Shown: one piece after another, positions 50,781-56,986 of the stretch
Layout: every line of letters starts with the position of its first letter
How positions within the stretch are numbered: position 1 is the first letter of the stretch
From: an uncultured Bacillota bacterium
GTDB lineage: Bacteria; Sysuimicrobiota; Sysuimicrobiia; Sysuimicrobiales; Segetimicrobiaceae
DNA: 64,000 nt
NCBI GenBank assembly: GCA_963804645.1
Contig: CAWDRG010000009.1
Span: 384,001-448,000, forward strand
Direction of reading: 5' to 3'
Notes under the pieces: generated by a model
Told to the model about the DNA's origin: nothing
What the model saw: only the letters and a program-made list of their open reading frames with translations
The model's database searches: none
Position numbers and translations under genes: made by a program

Positions 50781-50918
50781 CTAGTCTGCAGCCAGCCGGC
50801 GTCGACCCCGAAGGCGTCGCCGTCGCAATACGTTCCGGCCGCCGGGGGTACGCATCCGAACGCGGAAGCCGTGCGTCTTGCTCCGGTGCCGGCGGTTCGG
50901 TTGGAATGTACGCTTCAC
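50781..50918 (-). CDS. rpmH: 50S ribosomal protein L34 (missed by the ORF track)
   Basis: [57 protein letters not shown] start. Confidence 0.97.
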
Positions 50919-50985
50919 CGAGCCGCCTCCTCTCATGACTCAGATCGGCGCCCCGCGCATGCGAGGTCGCCGATCGCCTGTGGAG

Positions 50986-51015
50986 ACTATACCACAGACA
51001 CGGCACCGCGTTCAA
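50986..51015 (-). promoter_or_regulatory. Putative rpmH promoter
   Basis: Minus strand TTGAAC-18 nt-TATAGT with extended TG. Confidence 0.6.
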
Positions 51016-51156
51016 CGCGGGCGCCCCGGAACCGACGGCCCCGCTCCGACGCGCCCCTCGCGAGATCAGGAACCCACGCAGTTGCGCGCCGTTACCGCTC
51101 ACAGATCACTCAGCCGTCCCGTCAGATCGCCGCCCGGTATCAGATCGTGGGTTGGC

Positions 51157-51482
51157 TGTGGATAACCTCAAGATATCTCCCAGAATTACCCACATTTCGT
51201 GACCAAGTTGTCACGGAGGATGCTCGATTTTGGTCCAATTTCGGTCTGATCCATGATCTCTAAAGGAGTTTTCCTATCTTATCCACAATCTTTTCCACAC
51301 CTGTGGATAACGGTGTTGCCGACGCCATCCGGCCTATCCTGACGCGTTCTACGCATACCTCTCGCTGATCCCTGTCGTCGGAAAACGAGGAAAGTCGATG
51401 ATCGTCTTTCCACAATGCTGGTTGCTTTATGGCAGGTCAGCGGCAGACGAGGAAAGGGTCCAATGCTGCGCATTGTGGAAGG
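51157..51482. promoter_or_regulatory. Upstream DnaA-box cluster (oriC part 1 / dnaA operon control region)
   Basis: TGTGGATAA 51157, TTACCCACA 51186, TTATCCACA 51279, TTTTCCACA 51291, TGTGGATAA 51302, CTTTCCACA 51406, TGTGGAAGG 51474. Confidence 0.9.
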
Positions 51483-51534
51483 AGCGCACCATGGTGCGTC
51501 CAATTAGCGTCGATGTTCGCGGGAGGGGGGAGTG

Positions 51535-52329
51535 ATGCAGGACTTCTTCCTGCGGCTCGCATCCCAGGCCAAAGGAGAGCCGCAGGACGTTGCGCCTGCG
51601 CCGGAAGTGCGCATGGCCATCTATGACTCCCCACTGGCCCCGCCCCAGGTGGTGTCGCTCTCAGCGGAGGATTTCGGCCAGCTCGTCGGAGAGCTGGCGG
51701 CGCGCACGCACAACTACGCCCGCGAACGAGGCGGCCGCATTCCATTCGTGGTGATTCGGGAGATCGTGGAGAACCTCATACACGCGCTGTTCCAGAACGC
51801 CGTCGTGTCGATCATGGACGACGGCAACACGATTCGGATCTCCGACCAGGGGCCGGGCATCCGGGACAAGGATCATGCGTTCCAGCCGGGCTTTACCACC
51901 GCGACGCGTGAGATGCGGGCGTTCATCAAGGGCGTCGGCTCGGGACTGCCCGTCGCCCGCGAGCAGCTCGCGTTCCTCGGCGGCGCAATTTCGATCGAGG
52001 ACAATCTCGACCACGGGACGGTGGTCACGCTTCGGGTGGGTCAGTCGCGCGACGCCGCCCCGCTCGCGCCGACGGCGCCGAGCCCGCGGCCGGCCGAACC
52101 GCCGCGGCTGCGGCTCTCCGATCGACAGCGCAAGATCCTGCTGTTGATCGCGGAGCTCGGCTCCGCCGGGCCATCGACGATCGCCAAAGAACTCGGGATC
52201 AGCCAGAGCACCGCGTTTCGGGAGCTGGCGGCGCTGCAGAAGCACCAGTTGCTGGCGCAGCGCACCCCGGGCAAGCGGACGCTCACGGAAGACGGCATCG
52301 CATATCTTGGGAACGTCTTCAGACCGTAA
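51535..52329 (+). CDS. Uncharacterised GHKL (HATPase) ATP-binding protein with C-terminal winged HTH (orfX)
   Basis: IREIVENLIHA, ISDQGPGI, FQPGFTT, GVGSGL, GTVVTL; then LSDRQRKIL...STIAKELGISQSTAFREL; GGGAGG RBS. Confidence 0.85.
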   Translation: MQDFFLRLASQAKGEPQDVAPAPEVRMAIYDSPLAPPQVVSLSAEDFGQLVGELAARTHNYARERGGRIPFVVIREIVENLIHALFQNAVVSIMDDGNTIRISDQGPGIRDKDHAFQPGFTTATREMRAFIKGVGSGLPVAREQLAFLGGAISIEDNLDHGTVVTLRVGQSRDAAPLAPTAPSPRPAEPPRLRLSDRQRKILLLIAELGSAGPSTIAKELGISQSTAFRELAALQKHQLLAQRTPGKRTLTEDGIAYLGNVFRP

Positions 52330-52368
52330 GACGGGGCCCGCGACCCGACGGGCCTGGGAGGATCCTGG

Positions 52369-53736
52369 ATGGAAACACAGAGCGCGGCCGTAAACCAAGT
52401 TTGGCAAGAGGCGCTGACGCGCATCGAAAGTCAGTTGAGCAAACCAAGTTTTGAGGCGTTTCTCAAGGCGATGCGACCCGTCACCCTGGACCGGGATGTG
52501 TTCGTGTTCTCGGTCCCGAGCCTGTTTGCCAAAGAATGGCTGGAGGGACGGTACCTCGGCCTGATCGCGGAGACGCTGCGAGAAGTGCTGACCCGCGGCG
52601 TCGACGTCCGCTTCGTCGTCTCAGACTTGGACGTGCCCGCCCCGCGGATCGCGCCTGGCCCCCAGGAGATCGCCACGTCGATTCCTAAATCCGGGCCGGT
52701 CGATTCCCTGACGTTTACCGGCAAATACACGTTCGACACGTTCGTGGTCGGCAGCGGCAACCGGTTTGCCCATGCGGCCGCTCTCGCGGTCGCCGAGGCG
52801 CCCGCGAGAGCCTACAACCCCCTGTTTATCTACGGCGGCGTAGGACTTGGCAAGACCCATCTGCTCCAGGCCATCGGACATCGTGTCCTCACCCACAAGC
52901 AGATCGCCCGGGTGATGTACGTGTCGTCCGAACGCTTCACGAACGAAATGATCAACGCGATCCGCGACGACAAAATGGTGGAGTTCCGAAACCGCTACCG
53001 AAGCGTCGACGTACTGCTCATCGACGACATCCAGTTCCTGGCCGGCAAGGAGCGGACACAAGAAGAATTTTTCCACACGTTCAACACGCTCCACGAGTCG
53101 GGCCGTCAGCTGATCATCAGCAGCGACCGCCAGCCTCGAGAGATTCCGACGCTCGAAGACCGCCTGCGCTCTCGGTTCGAATGGGGCCTCATCGCGGACA
53201 TCGAACCGCCCGACTACGAGACCCGCATCGCGATCCTGAGGAAGAAGGCCGAACTCGACGCGATCGCCGTGCCGGACGAAGTCACGCAGTACATTGCGCA
53301 GCGAATTTCGTCGAACATCCGCGAACTCGAGGGCGCCCTCAGCCGACTGCGCGCGCACGCGGAGATGCAGCGCACGACGATCTCCATCGACCTGGCGATC
53401 GAAGTCCTCAAAGAAATCCTGCCCCAGGCGCGGATCCGACCCGTCACCATCCCGGGGATCCAGCGCGCCGTCGCCGAGTTCTTCGGCATCCGCATCGAGG
53501 AAATGAAGGCCAAGCGCCGCACCAAAGGCGTGGCGTTCCCGCGCCAGGTCGCCATGTATCTCTCCCGAGAACTGACCGATGCGTCACTGCCGCGCATCGG
53601 CGAGGAGTTCGGAGGGCGCGACCACACCACGGTGATGCACGCGTGCGATCGGGTAAAGAGCGCCTTGATCCACGACTCCCATCTCGCCGCCGGTATCAAA
53701 AGTCTTGTGGACAGTTTCCGGACCGAGCGCCCGTAA
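52369..53736 (+). CDS. dnaA: Chromosomal replication initiator DnaA
   Basis: YTFDTFVVG, YNPLFIYGGVGLGKTHL, DDIQF, SRFEWG, GGRDHTTVMHA. Confidence 0.99.
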   Translation: METQSAAVNQVWQEALTRIESQLSKPSFEAFLKAMRPVTLDRDVFVFSVPSLFAKEWLEGRYLGLIAETLREVLTRGVDVRFVVSDLDVPAPRIAPGPQEIATSIPKSGPVDSLTFTGKYTFDTFVVGSGNRFAHAAALAVAEAPARAYNPLFIYGGVGLGKTHLLQAIGHRVLTHKQIARVMYVSSERFTNEMINAIRDDKMVEFRNRYRSVDVLLIDDIQFLAGKERTQEEFFHTFNTLHESGRQLIISSDRQPREIPTLEDRLRSRFEWGLIADIEPPDYETRIAILRKKAELDAIAVPDEVTQYIAQRISSNIRELEGALSRLRAHAEMQRTTISIDLAIEVLKEILPQARIRPVTIPGIQRAVAEFFGIRIEEMKAKRRTKGVAFPRQVAMYLSRELTDASLPRIGEEFGGRDHTTVMHACDRVKSALIHDSHLAAGIKSLVDSFRTERP

Positions 53737-53799
53737 AGTGGGGATGCGGTAGGCCGTCATCCACCGGTGTGCCCGTCTTGTCAGGACGCCTCTGGACGA

Positions 53800-53930
53800 C
53801 GTGCATAACGCACGGAAAAGGACCTTATGGTTATCCACAGGTTGAAACCCTTATCGGATGCCCTTCAGAGCCGATATTCACATAATCCACAGGTTCTACT
53901 ATGACTACGACGAATATTTATTATAAAAAG
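53800..53930 (+). other. oriC unwinding region: DnaA boxes, DnaA-trio-like repeats and AT-rich DUE
   Basis: TTATCCACA 53831; tandem ATATTCACA/TAATCCACA 53874-53891; CTACTATGACTACGACGA 53896-53913; AATATTTATTATAAAAA. Confidence 0.9.
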
Positions 53931-53948
53931 AACCCCTAGGAGCGGGAT

Positions 53949-55058
53949 ATGCGTTTTTCGTGTTCTCAGGAGCAGTTGCTCCGAAGTGTCCAGACGGTGG
54001 GACGCGCAATCTCTCCAAGGGCTAGTATGCCGATTTTGGGCAATATTCTGCTCGAAGCTTCAAAAGACGGCGTAAAGCTGGCCGCCACCGATCTGGAACT
54101 GGGGATCGAGGCCCACCTCAATGCAAAGGTCATGGAGGAGGGAGCCGTCACGCTTCCGGCGAGGATTCTCACCGATATCGTGACCAATCTGCCCGAGGCT
54201 CCGGTGGAAATCACGGTAGAGGAAGGCGATGCCAAAGCCATTATTTCGTGCGAATCGGTGAAATTCGAGCTTGTTGGGCTTCCCAGCACGGACTTTCCGA
54301 TCATGCCGAGCGGAGATGGTAACGTTCTTGTGAAGATCGACGGGAGTTTACTGCGTACGATGATCCGGCAGACCAGTTTTGCGGTCTCGACGGATGAAAC
54401 ACGGCCATTCCTGACCGGGGTCTATGTCATGATCGAGGGCGGAGCCGGCCAGTTGGTGGCCACCGACGGGGGACGACTCGCGCTGCGGCGGGCCAAAATC
54501 TCAGGAGAGCCTCGCGGTAAAATCTCCGCGATCGTCCCAAACAAGACAATGGCGGAACTCGTGCGTGTGCTGGGCCTGCTCGAGGGTGATGTCACAATCG
54601 CGTCGCAAGAGAACCAGTTGGTCTTCACCCTGCCCGGTCTCCGATTCGTGTCTCGATTGATTGCCGGGCAGTTTCCCAACTACGAGCAGGTCATCCCGAA
54701 AGAATTCAAGCAGCGCATCAAGGTTGGAACCGAACGCCTGCTTCGGGCTGTGCGGCGCGCGAGCATCACGGCGCGGGACTCCGCGAATGTGGTTCGCCTG
54801 AGTGCGGACGGCGCCACGCTGACGATCAGCTCGAATACGCCGGACGTGGGCAAGGCGCAGGAAGACGTTCCTGTTACCGCGGAGGGTGACGCGATTCCGG
54901 TGGCGTTCAACGCCAAGTTTCTCATGGACGCACTCAGCAACATGGACGCGCCCGAGGTTTGGCTGGAACTGACCGGACCGCTGAGCCCGGGGGCGCTGCG
55001 GCCGGTCGAGCATGCCGACTACGTGTACGTCCTGGCTCCGGTCCGTGTCTACGGATAG
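53949..55058 (+). CDS. dnaN: DNA polymerase III beta clamp
   Basis: ATDLELGI, STDETRPFLTG, ATDGGRLA, GQFPNYEQVIP, FNAKFL. Confidence 0.98.
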   Translation: MRFSCSQEQLLRSVQTVGRAISPRASMPILGNILLEASKDGVKLAATDLELGIEAHLNAKVMEEGAVTLPARILTDIVTNLPEAPVEITVEEGDAKAIISCESVKFELVGLPSTDFPIMPSGDGNVLVKIDGSLLRTMIRQTSFAVSTDETRPFLTGVYVMIEGGAGQLVATDGGRLALRRAKISGEPRGKISAIVPNKTMAELVRVLGLLEGDVTIASQENQLVFTLPGLRFVSRLIAGQFPNYEQVIPKEFKQRIKVGTERLLRAVRRASITARDSANVVRLSADGATLTISSNTPDVGKAQEDVPVTAEGDAIPVAFNAKFLMDALSNMDAPEVWLELTGPLSPGALRPVEHADYVYVLAPVRVYG

Positions 55059-55061
55059 TCC

Positions 55062-55289
55062 GTGCCGGATCGCGGTGTTGAAACGGTGACAATTTCGACG
55101 CCGCAGATTGCCCTGGGCGCGTTCCTCAAGTGGGCCGGGATCGCGGATACCGGCGGCGCCGCGAAAACGCTGGCGCAGCAGGGCCGCGTCGCGGTCAACG
55201 GGGTCGTCGAGCGGAGGCGGGGACGCGAGCTGCGTGCCGGGGACGTCGTCGTGGTAGGCGGTCGGGAGTATCGCGTTGCGAATCGTTGA
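55062..55289 (+). CDS. yaaA: S4-domain RNA-binding protein (YaaA/RlbA-like)
   Basis: LGAFLKWAGIADTGGAAK...VNGVVERRRGREL..GDVV; lies between dnaN and recF. Confidence 0.9.
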   Translation: MPDRGVETVTISTPQIALGAFLKWAGIADTGGAAKTLAQQGRVAVNGVVERRRGRELRAGDVVVVGGREYRVANR

Positions 55290-56379
55290 GCTGCGCCTGC
55301 GGGATTTTCGGAACTACGTCGCCGAGGATGTGACGTTTGGCGACGGGATCACCGTTTTCGCCGGACCCAACGCGCAGGGAAAGAGTAATCTCCTCGAGTC
55401 GATTTATACCGTCGCGGTCGGGCGGAGCCCGCGCGCGACGGCGGACGTGGAATTGGTGCGATTCGGGCAGGACCGCGCGTATATCAGAGCGGTCGTTGAG
55501 GGCGGGCGTGCGAGCGCACTTGAGGTGGCCGTGGATCGGGTCTCGGGCGAGAAGCGTATCAAGGTGAACGGGGTGGTTACACAGCGGGGACAGCTGCTCG
55601 GGCGGCTGGCGGTCGTGCTCGCGGGGCCGCTGGACGACGAGTTGATCCGGGGCGGGCCGGCGTATCGGCGCCGTCTGATGGACGCGGCGCTGAGTCAGAT
55701 GAGCCCGTCGTATTACTTCAACTTGAGCCGGTATCTTCGTGTCGTGCGGCAGCGGAATCGTCTGCTCAAGGCCGGCGCCGCGGCGGCGGCCCTGGCGCCG
55801 TGGGACACGCAGTTTGTGGAGTTGGGGGCGACGCTGGTCGAGCGGCGCTACCAGTTCGTCCAGGGGCTGGCGGCGCGTGCGCGTGCACGGCACGCGCGCA
55901 TCGCCGTCGGCGAGGAAGTGCTGGGGGTGGTGTACGAGGCGTCCGGCGTGATCGAGGGGACGGATCGCGAGGACGATGCGCGCGCGCAACTGGGGCGCGC
56001 GCTCGCCGCGCGGCGGGGAGAAGAACTGCGGCGGGGCACGAGCGTCGTGGGCCCGCACCGGGACGACTTGGCTTTTACCGTGAACGGCATCGATCTCAGA
56101 GTGTTTGGGTCGCGCGGCCAGCAGCACACGGCCGCGCTGAGCCTGCGGTTGGGAGAGGTGGAACTGCTGCGGGACGAACTCGGGGAGTGGCCGGTCGTGC
56201 TGCTGGATGACGTGCTGGCCGACCTGGATCTGGAACGACAGGCGGCGCTGCTGGGAGAGGTCGTGGGCCCACAAGTGCTGATGACGCATACGCGCGTGCC
56301 GGAAGCGCCGGGGGTGTCCGTTCGCCACGTGGCGGTGATGTCCGGTAAGCTCGTGAGGGATGCGGATGTACGCGCTTAA
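55276..56379 (+). CDS. recF: DNA replication and repair protein RecF
   Basis: FRNY, GPNAQGKSNLLE, GPHRDD, GSRGQQ, LLDDVLADLD; TTG start. Confidence 0.97.
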   Translation: MRIVELRLRDFRNYVAEDVTFGDGITVFAGPNAQGKSNLLESIYTVAVGRSPRATADVELVRFGQDRAYIRAVVEGGRASALEVAVDRVSGEKRIKVNGVVTQRGQLLGRLAVVLAGPLDDELIRGGPAYRRRLMDAALSQMSPSYYFNLSRYLRVVRQRNRLLKAGAAAAALAPWDTQFVELGATLVERRYQFVQGLAARARARHARIAVGEEVLGVVYEASGVIEGTDREDDARAQLGRALAARRGEELRRGTSVVGPHRDDLAFTVNGIDLRVFGSRGQQHTAALSLRLGEVELLRDELGEWPVVLLDDVLADLDLERQAALLGEVVGPQVLMTHTRVPEAPGVSVRHVAVMSGKLVRDADVRA

Positions 56380-56695
56380 GGAGCTGCTCGGCGATGCGCT
56401 GACCGCGCTTGTGGGGCCGCGCCGAGCGCGGCAGGCCGCGGTGCTCGATGTGTGGCCGGAGGTGGTGGGCGAGGGGCGCGCGCGCCATGCGCGCGCCGTC
56501 GGCGTGCGCGGGAGCACGCTCGTGGTCGCCACGGATCTGCCGGCCGTGTACTACGAGCTCGGCCTGCGGCGGGCCGAGTTGGTGGCGTCGTTGAATCAGC
56601 GCGCCGGCGGGGACGCGATCACCGAGATTCAGCTGCAGATGCGGCCGCTCGGTCGGAGCGACGACGGCGCCGAGAGGGAATCGGGCGCGCCGTAG
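56360..56695 (+). CDS. dciA: DUF721/DciA family helicase-loader-like protein
   Basis: WPEVVG..RARHAR...TLVV...YEL...LVASLN; position after recF. Confidence 0.8.
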   Translation: MRMYALKELLGDALTALVGPRRARQAAVLDVWPEVVGEGRARHARAVGVRGSTLVVATDLPAVYYELGLRRAELVASLNQRAGGDAITEIQLQMRPLGRSDDGAERESGAP

Positions 56696-56716
56696 GCGCT
56701 CGAGGCGCGTGTCGTC

Positions 56717-56986
56717 ATGTATGTGCATCTCGGCGGAGATATTGTGGTGCCGATTCAGGACATCATCGGGATCTTCGACACGAGGATCCTCGTAGGCAAC
56801 GATGATAATCATCGGTTTCTCTCGAATGCCGTCGCAAACAAGAGAATGATGAGCGAGATTCATGATCGCGATCGAAAATCGCTCGTGGTGACAACCAACG
56901 GCGTATATTGGTCTGCGATTTCGTCGCTTACCCTTGTTAGGCGCGTGACGAACGTGCAGTGGGGATTGAGCGTTTCTGAAGGCTGA
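56717..56986 (+). CDS. remB: DUF370/RemB (YaaB)-like protein
   Basis: MYVHLGGDIVV...IIGIFD...KSLVVT...YWSAISSLTL. Confidence 0.88.
   Translation: MYVHLGGDIVVPIQDIIGIFDTRILVGNDDNHRFLSNAVANKRMMSEIHDRDRKSLVVTTNGVYWSAISSLTLVRRVTNVQWGLSVSEG

Follow-up and report, generated by a model that had tools for sequence, protein, structure and literature searches.

The proteins known to modulate DnaA or the replication origin oriC include YabA, SirA, Soj/ParA, Hda, DiaA/HobA and SeqA, together with the origin-binding response regulators CtrA, MtrA and Spo0A. To our knowledge, the control of DnaA is understood in detail just in E. coli, B. subtilis and Caulobacter, the regulators of those organisms are not conserved elsewhere, and none of the known modulators is a GHKL protein or is encoded as the leading gene of a dnaA operon across phyla. 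Here we analyze a gene, which we call orfX, that bears on the open question of how most bacteria time initiation. It is found in a stretch of 64,000 nts of contig CAWDRG010000009.1 (assembly GCA_963804645.1, positions 384,001 to 448,000) from an uncultured bacterium of the Sysuimicrobiota, and we refer to this whole stretch as the window. orfX (51535..52329, + strand) encodes a protein of 264 residues in which an N-terminal beta-hairpin and a Bergerat ATP-binding domain are joined by a Pro/Ala linker to a winged helix, and it is located directly upstream of dnaA. From its sequence and surroundings, we regard orfX as a strong candidate for a new regulator of chromosome replication. The role that we propose would resemble that of Soj and Hda, in which nucleotide state is coupled to initiation control, and that of MtrA, CtrA and Spo0A, in which a DNA-binding domain is brought to the origin region. 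orfX has, however, no sequence or fold relation to any known DnaA modulator, and none of them, the YabA, SirA and DnaD/DnaB families included, is among its Pfam matches.

The position of orfX next to dnaA does not vary. Of 41 relatives searched, 39 have both proteins, and in each of these orfX immediately precedes dnaA on one contig and in the same orientation; the two relatives without orfX also lack a dnaA match and are 65% and 86% complete. A tblastn search on 30 loci finds dnaA next to orfX in all 30 (this set and the 39-genome set each include the unpublished genome G034). A scan of the GTDB collection, with one genome per species, reports at least 550 orfX relatives. Among the 80 best of these loci, dnaA is directly 3' of orfX in 78, and the two exceptions are contigs that end 171 and 299 bases past orfX. 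The 80 loci carry at least three phylum labels, with members in Sysuimicrobiota/CSP1-3, Thermoleophilia, Coriobacteriia, other Actinomycetota, and metagenome-assembled genomes of Bacillota and Clostridia. For the most distant Actinomycetota matches (the 20 weakest, at 35-49% identity), dnaA is next in 19 and the twentieth is at a contig end. Because the sets share members and the genomes in them are related, the counts cannot be read as independent trials. A previous examination of the window, which we call the sequence-only reading, had staked its interpretation on a linkage between orfX and dnaA, and that linkage holds in every locus with enough sequence, with no exception seen at any distance down to about 35% identity. 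The relatives in Coriobacteriia that it mentioned do exist (loci L085, L095, L103, L106 and L109 are titled so, and L080 is a metagenome-assembled genome labelled Slackia). In Actinomycetota loci without orfX, rpmH is found upstream of dnaA in 16/18 cases, so that lineages differ by the presence or absence of one gene in the slot between rpmH and dnaA. Two of those 18 control loci, L133 and L141, are supplied by the unpublished genomes G099 and G116.

orfX is present in 80 of the 94 genomes of the phylum of the window, and in all 54 with a completeness of 90% or more and a contamination of 5% or less, always with one copy per genome. All 94 belong to one order, whose source titles are CSP1-3, Sysuimicrobiota, "Bacillati bacterium ANGP1" and Armatimonadota, and the tally includes the unpublished genome G062. 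Outside the phylum, an orfX match (E <= 1e-30) is found in 156 of 401 evenly sampled Actinomycetota, and 21 of 201 sampled genomes of a Bacillota-type phylum have a match. A search of 72,556 plasmids and 50,697 phages gave no match. Across 92 distinct loci, the identities of orfX and of DnaA to the query vary together (r = 0.92), and the mean identities to the query are 57% for orfX, 61% for DnaA and 44% for DnaN. orfX is a core protein that is inherited vertically and evolves slowly, with a degree of conservation close to that of DnaA. All 20 relatives aligned from the same family keep the ATG of orfX and the G-rich ribosome-binding site before it. A second possible start is the in-frame GTG at 51532. 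The stop codon is a TAA at 52327-52329, which leaves a spacer of 39 nts to the ATG of dnaA at 52369. The open reading frame, this spacing, the ribosome-binding site and the sequence motifs are all present as the sequence-only reading had described them. orfX is a real gene, single-copy, with intact domains and motifs and an invariant position.

The motifs of the ATP-binding fold are IREIVEN (residues 74-80, which contains the N-box Asn), DQGPG (104-108), FQPGFTT (116-122), GVGSGL (133-138) and GTVV (161-164). The Pfam model HATPase_c (PF02518) matches residues 73-168 with an E-value of 1.2e-12 and 48.6 bits, relative to a cut-off of 26.4, and it is matched by 33/33 members of the orfX family. 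Residues 194-259 match the winged-helix families HTH_IclR (27.1 bits, cut-off 22) and MarR (26.1 bits, cut-off 24.6), and HVO_A0261_N at 30.2 bits, below its cut-off of 35. No HisKA-type family matches orfX in Pfam at E-values up to 1. The AlphaFold2 model, built from an alignment of 33 diverse family members, has a mean predicted local distance difference test (pLDDT) of 88.9 and a predicted template modelling score (pTM) of 0.63. In the model, residues 1-70 form a beta-hairpin and one helix, the N-terminal domain (residues 19-171) adopts the Bergerat fold, and the Pro/Ala linker (171-190) has low confidence, which together with the pTM value fits two tethered domains. The C-terminal 70 residues superimpose on the MarR-type structure 3nrv_A with Z 13.0 and a root-mean-square deviation (rmsd) of 1.2 Å, and on Csa3 (6wxq) with Z 11.7. 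Pfam and a scan of the neighboring genes thus agree with the domain claims made before, of a Bergerat fold, a Pro/Ala linker and a winged helix, without a HisKA domain or a neighboring response regulator.

Across the 33 family members, residues N80, D104, G106, G108, G133, G135, G137 and G161 are invariant. E76, the Glu four residues before the N-box Asn to which the sequence-only reading had drawn attention, is found in at least 90% of them. It is very likely that orfX binds ATP, because these invariant or nearly invariant residues are the ones that bind Mg-ATP in this fold. H83 is invariant too, as are A28, Y30 and P37 of the conserved strand pair at residues 24-43, in the N-terminal part. 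In the winged helix, R197, P213, T226, R248 and G254 are invariant and R229 is nearly so; the conserved positions of the recognition helix and the wing are T226, R229, K247, R248 and G254, and binding of orfX to DNA is plausible. NCBIfam has no model for the whole protein, and its best hits are partial matches far below their cut-offs, to the Csa3 winged helix, histidine-kinase catalytic and ATP-binding (CA) domains, SpoIIAB and MutL. Only seven longer relatives are found (464-535 amino acids), each of which has these two domains joined by a longer linker, so that there are no fused forms among them (shorter or split forms were not searched). The relatives carry automatic names such as "ATP-binding protein", "histidine kinase family protein" and "anti-sigma regulatory factor". 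A full-text literature search, in a library that does not hold all literature, found no published work on the family.

The best structural matches of the N-terminal domain are tied within about 1 Z unit, and they include DIP2311, SpoIIAB and the CA domains of the histidine kinases ThkA, HprS, NifL, CpxA and HK853. DIP2311 (Corynebacterium diphtheriae, 3lmm) is the best match to this domain and covers its first strands as well, with Z 12.8 over 150 residues and an rmsd of 2.7 Å. It is also the top Foldseek match (E 6.7e-8, 273-287 columns), because it holds both domains in the same order, and it is followed there by the branched-chain ketoacid and pyruvate dehydrogenase kinases and by histidine kinases. 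The identity to DIP2311 is 14-17%, and the 3lmm chains have 477-556 residues, versus 264 in orfX, with a further N-terminal domain and no known link to dnaA; Pfam gives orfX no match of the DIP2311 type. Since DIP2311 comes from structural genomics and its own function is unknown, the resemblance says nothing about mechanism. By sequence, the best matches are the CA domains of histidine kinases (KinB 3d36, HK853, CpxA, CheA P4 and ThkA 3a0t), and they involve the half of the ATP domain that contains the G1, F-box-like, G2 and G3 elements. By profile, histidine kinases are the closest matches to this C-terminal half, with KinB at E 8.5e-9 over residues 78-175, and CheA and HK853 also among the matches; by fold, ThkA aligns with Z 11.4 over 116 residues. 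In contrast to a sensor histidine kinase, orfX lacks a dimerization and phosphotransfer (DHp/HisKA) domain, an acceptor His and any sensor or membrane part, and a scan of 12 neighboring genes revealed no response regulator. Also unlike histidine kinases, the N-box Asn (N80) is accompanied by a Glu at position N-4 (E76) and by a His at N+3 (H83), and a winged helix is fused to the domain.

The half of the ATP domain that contains the N-box also matches MutL (E 1.1e-5, residues 71-129) and SpoIIAB (E 4.7e-5, residues 70-170), in agreement with the wider GHKL and SpoIIAB kinship that had been suspected from the sequence. As in the GHL ATPases (GyrB, MutL, Hsp90 and MORC), the Glu and Asn of motif I are present (E76, N80), but orfX has no transducer domain: the ATP domain ends at about residue 170 and is followed by the linker and the winged helix. 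What orfX shares with SpoIIAB/RsbW is a small Bergerat domain of the stand-alone type, about 140 residues long and lacking a transducer. The SpoIIAB structure 1l0o_A aligns over 128/141 residues with Z 11.5 and an rmsd of 3.6 Å, tied with the histidine-kinase CA domains, and the two proteins have a QP.FTT stretch in common. orfX stays below the cut-offs of the SpoIIAB-type models (13.9 bits versus 27.4 for PF13581, 22.3 versus 135 for TIGR01925), and it differs from SpoIIAB in the additional N-terminal strand pair at 24-43, in the C-terminal winged helix, and in that no STAS or sigma factor gene adjoins it among the neighbors scanned. For the winged helix, the closest sequence relatives are Csa3 and CasR (TIGR01884, E 4.6e-8; PADLOC CasR, E 1e-7). 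Csa3/CasR and orfX have in common the logic of a domain that senses a nucleotide ligand fused to a winged helix, but the sensor is a CARF domain in the former and a GHKL ATP-binding fold in orfX, which has no CRISPR context. We considered orfX as part of a defense system and discarded the idea, since the PADLOC matches to Csa3/CasR involve just the winged helix. By these sequence comparisons, orfX does not classify as a histidine kinase, a member of the SpoIIAB family, a GHL ATPase or a relative of a known DnaA regulator.

We consider it likely that orfX works with DnaA or with the origin. The specific form that we favor is that orfX is an ATP-gated, origin-anchored modulator of replication initiation that is made together with DnaA; we hold this form tentatively, at somewhat less than an even chance. 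In this proposal, orfX would lead a conserved orfX-dnaA(-dnaN) unit that is presumably co-transcribed from the DnaA-box region beside rpmH, and it would be made in a fixed ratio with DnaA. Its product would be a soluble one-component protein in which a GHKL module is joined by a flexible linker to a winged helix of the MarR/TrmB/Csa3 kind. The winged helix would anchor the protein at or near the origin or the dnaA promoter, and the binding of ATP would switch its state. GHKL domains commonly dimerize on ATP binding, and the change of state would probably be such a dimerization, which would join two winged helices. The ATP state of orfX would then modulate the access of DnaA to origin DNA or its assembly there, possibly by a direct contact with DnaA. 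A more ambitious version, which we think unlikely, takes orfX as the missing negative or positive switch of DnaA in those Terrabacteria of the DciA type that have no Hda, YabA or SirA. orfX would be a GHKL ATP switch or kinase made stoichiometrically with DnaA, binding it directly at the origin and setting its activity by cellular ATP, and it would be ancestral to much of the Actinomycetota, the Sysuimicrobiota and some Bacillota, with a later loss in Actinomycetes. DciA is present in the genome of the window, and YabA, DnaD/DnaB_2 and SirA (PF06156, PF07261 and PF10747) are not found in this genome, which is 96.8% complete, while control genomes were matched by the same models.

If orfX does act on DnaA or oriC, a GHKL-type nucleotide switch would join the initiation regulators, and the protein would be a lineage-specific target in an essential process; if the version with DnaA activity set by ATP were true, replication initiation would be controlled by a mechanism of a new class. 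If orfX does not act on DnaA or oriC, the strict gene order itself needs explaining. The family occurs in hundreds of species, including classes with cultured, tractable members and the gut-associated Coriobacteriia.

Several results weigh against the modulator that we favor. Conserved adjacency alone shows co-inheritance and probably co-expression, not a shared function. The 245 of 401 sampled Actinomycetota without an orfX match, where rpmH abuts dnaA, imply that the function is dispensable or replaceable over evolution. Lacking a transducer, orfX is not expected to hydrolyze ATP robustly in the manner of GyrB or MutL, and a role as a kinase or in pure binding is equally compatible with such a protein. 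In search of an operator specific to orfX, the 7-mers and 8-mers common to 114 deduplicated upstream regions of 400 bps are all DnaA-box words, and the head-to-head arrangement of boxes, CCACA-N2-TGTGG, also precedes dnaA in 8/18 Actinomycetota loci without orfX. Two runs of one peat metatranscriptome study, with small shares of 0.07 and 0.06, include an RNA contig of 244 nts (X1) on 51526-51769, at the start of orfX, with 1 difference, and another of 205 nts (X2) on 53337-53541, within dnaA, with no difference; no RNA contig in these two runs bridges the orfX-dnaA junction, and DNA carry-over is possible. In favor of the modulator, though weakly, a complex of orfX with DnaA, predicted with alignments for both chains, scores 0.35 in three runs while the best of 3 controls scores 0.00, but a score of this class is more often wrong than right unless the interaction was likely beforehand. 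The mark for these scores is reached by 116/157 solved complexes and by 2/215 mismatched pairs, and those that pass with a score of 0.60 or less are just 18 of the 157 solved complexes plus both of the mismatches. The three runs agree in at least 42% of the contacts, and the partner pLDDT is at least 67. The complex prediction that the sequence-only reading had proposed thus gives a weak pass in silico, which nudges the odds that orfX binds DnaA and does not establish it.

A search for DnaA residues that go along with orfX leads to positions 361, 365 and 368 (window 53449-53472), which are on the same side of the first domain IV helix and separate 97 DnaAs from orfX-bearing loci from 15 Actinomycetota DnaAs without orfX (from loci L131-L148). 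The former have the state I361/Q365/V368 in 86-89% of cases; the latter, together with 3pvp, have P or I, I/L/M, and T/A. We reject this pattern as a sign of co-evolution with orfX and regard it as a clade effect, because solved DnaAs from organisms without orfX carry the "plus" state. These are 8btg and 1j1v, which with 3pvp we take to be the DnaAs of Bacillus subtilis, E. coli and Mycobacterium tuberculosis, respectively (8btg and 1j1v have I/Q/V and 3pvp has the other state).

Among the other explanations, the main rival, though rather unlikely, is that orfX is a kinase or partner-switching protein similar to SpoIIAB/RsbW, which would phosphorylate or sequester DnaA, another initiation protein or a sigma factor of the dnaA promoter, with a winged helix that just localizes it or binds protein. 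The extensive alignment to SpoIIAB (128/141 residues, Z 11.5; profile E 4.7e-5) favors this explanation, and the N-terminal half alone matches SpoIIAB first, including the QP.FTT stretch (E 0.06). The GHKL Ser kinases that act on the branched-chain ketoacid and pyruvate dehydrogenases are among the best Foldseek matches, E76 is nearly invariant, there is no transducer, as in kinases, and several members have been named "anti-sigma regulatory factor (Ser/Thr protein kinase)" by the automatic annotation of JGI. The weakly supported complex with DnaA (0.35 versus 0.00) counts for it as well. On the other hand, the PF13581 and TIGR01925 matches are far below their cut-offs, neither a STAS partner nor a sigma gene adjoins orfX, and the CA domains of histidine kinases match equally well or better (KinB, E 8.5e-9). 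No DnaA residue specific to the lineages with orfX was found, given that the three candidate columns are a clade effect, and the conservation of the recognition helix and of the basic wing speaks for genuine binding to DNA.

An explanation without any direct action on DnaA or on unwinding is that orfX is a plain autoregulatory transcription factor that senses a nucleotide and tunes dnaA-dnaN to the energy state of the cell. One-component regulators such as Csa3 have the same architecture of a sensor and a winged helix, orfX directly follows the promoter region that would be its target, and a non-coding block at 51406-51445 is conserved in its family. We nevertheless find this explanation improbable: local transcription factors usually diverge fast and move, whereas orfX is as conserved as DnaA and never leaves its slot, and no operator conserved across phyla was found besides the DnaA boxes, even though the recognition helix is conserved across those same phyla. 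Very improbable, in our judgment, is that the linkage is positional, and that orfX has some other role that gains from a site that is close to the origin and coupled to growth rate, such as nucleoid organization, origin segregation or an ATP-dependent stress response. Such cases do exist in this neighborhood, where jag, rsmG, yidC, the S4 protein and the remA-like gene are conserved without acting on initiation, and orfX is missing from many lineages. Mere proximity to the origin, however, would not give so strict an arrangement, in which orfX immediately precedes dnaA on the same strand, with a short spacer or an overlap, in loci with as little as about 35% identity; nor did orfX turn up at other sites of a genome or on mobile elements. 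The initiation modulator made together with DnaA is the reading that we retain, with the tentativeness stated above.

The neighborhood of orfX is a classical origin region. To the left are rpmH (50781..50936, - strand), which encodes ribosomal protein L34 (Pfam Ribosomal_L34, E 5.4e-18) and is divergent from orfX, and then rnpA, yidC, jag, rsmG and parA. To the right are dnaA (52369..53736, + strand; 455 amino acids, Pfam DnaA_N, Bac_DnaA and Bac_DnaA_C), dnaN (53949..55058, + strand; the beta clamp, with the three domains of Pfam DNA_pol3_beta), the S4-domain gene, recF, dciA, the remA-like gene and gyrB. The DnaA-box word TTATCCACA, with at most 1 mismatch, appears 11 times in the window where 1.98 are expected, and 0/100 shuffles reached 11. 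Five of the boxes form a cluster (51157..51310) between rpmH and orfX, at 51157-51165 (-), 51186-51194 (+, 1 mismatch), 51279-51287 (+), 51291-51299 (+, 1 mismatch) and 51302-51310 (-). The block TTATCCACAAtcTTTTCCACAcCTGTGGATAA in this cluster is kept in 20/20 aligned relatives of the same family. The boxes at 51291-51299 and 51302-51310 form a head-to-head pair with a 2-bp spacer, and the corresponding CCACA-N2-TGTGG pair is found 127-291 bps upstream of orfX in 53/114 loci. It occurs in 0/74 of the dnaA-dnaN spacers, and spacings other than 2 bps are seen in at most 2 loci. We rejected the pair as an operator of orfX, since it is equally common without orfX (8/18 versus 53/114); in the loci compared, the 2-bp pair is a fixed geometry of the dnaA promoter region, conserved across phyla and independent of orfX.

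The downstream half of the origin (53831..53935, + strand) is between dnaA and dnaN. It has two DnaA boxes, at 53831-53839 and 53883-53891 (TAATCCACA), and the second is followed by seven trinucleotides with a central A at 53897-53917 (TAC TAT GAC TAC GAC GAA TAT), an AT-rich run at 53918-53935, and then dnaN. We take the arrangement at 53883-53935 to resemble the box, DnaA-trio and unwinding element (the basal unwinding system) of Bacillus-type origins. If this likeness is real, unwinding probably takes place there and not beside orfX. The sequence-only reading had located orfX inside a bipartite oriC; it is indeed placed between the upstream box cluster and dnaA, but the likely unwinding site is downstream of dnaA.

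About 100 bps upstream of orfX, the alignment of 20 upstream regions from the family of the window (f1) defines by its conserved columns a non-coding block at 51406..51445 (+ strand), which is conserved within the family and not across phyla. The block starts with a degenerate DnaA box, CTTTCCACA (51406-51414; CTcTCCACA), and ends with GGCAGGTCAGCGGCA (51431-51445). It contains a TTGACC-like word in many relatives, as well as CGGCAcGTCAgCGGCA, which reads as two CGGCA words 11 bps apart. We consider the block a candidate promoter or operator of the orfX operon. A scan for sigma-70 promoters and terminators on the + strand of 50900-54000 found nothing, the operon's own promoter included, and is uninformative for this organism; on the - strand, there is a sigma-70-like site at 51015-50986, upstream of rpmH. 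An upstream open reading frame of 14 codons (MVRPISVDVRGRGE) at 51491-51535 ends in a stop codon that shares bases with the start of orfX (TGATG), and it is probably there by chance, because its ATG is not kept in the closest aligned relatives.

The spacer of 39 nts between orfX and dnaA (52330..52368, + strand) includes the ribosome-binding site of dnaA, GGGAGG, at 52356-52361, and, as a box search confirms, no DnaA box. The median spacer length over 108 locus rows, which include duplicates, is also 39 nts, and in 25 rows the two genes overlap or are at most 21 nts apart; 10 of the rows gave nonsensical values due to a failure of the start-codon heuristic. None of the 108 has a DnaA box in the spacer, and the number of boxes upstream of orfX varies from 1 to 15. 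This spacing, we infer, resembles that of an operon with translational coupling. The spacer also has a GC-rich inverted repeat, read by eye, with GGCCCG at 52335-52340 and CGGGCC at 52349-52354, separated by 8 nts. The spacers of close relatives (L002-L008) have different but, also by eye, likewise self-complementary sequences at the same place. The repeat could be an element for RNA stability or attenuation that sets the ratio of orfX to dnaA.

The interval between dnaN and gyrB (55062-56986) includes the S4-domain gene (55062-55289), recF, dciA (56360-56695; PF05258, E 2.8e-15) and the RemA-like gene (56717-56986). It pairs a Bacillus-like gene order with the DciA helicase operator that is typical of bacteria without DnaC or DnaI.

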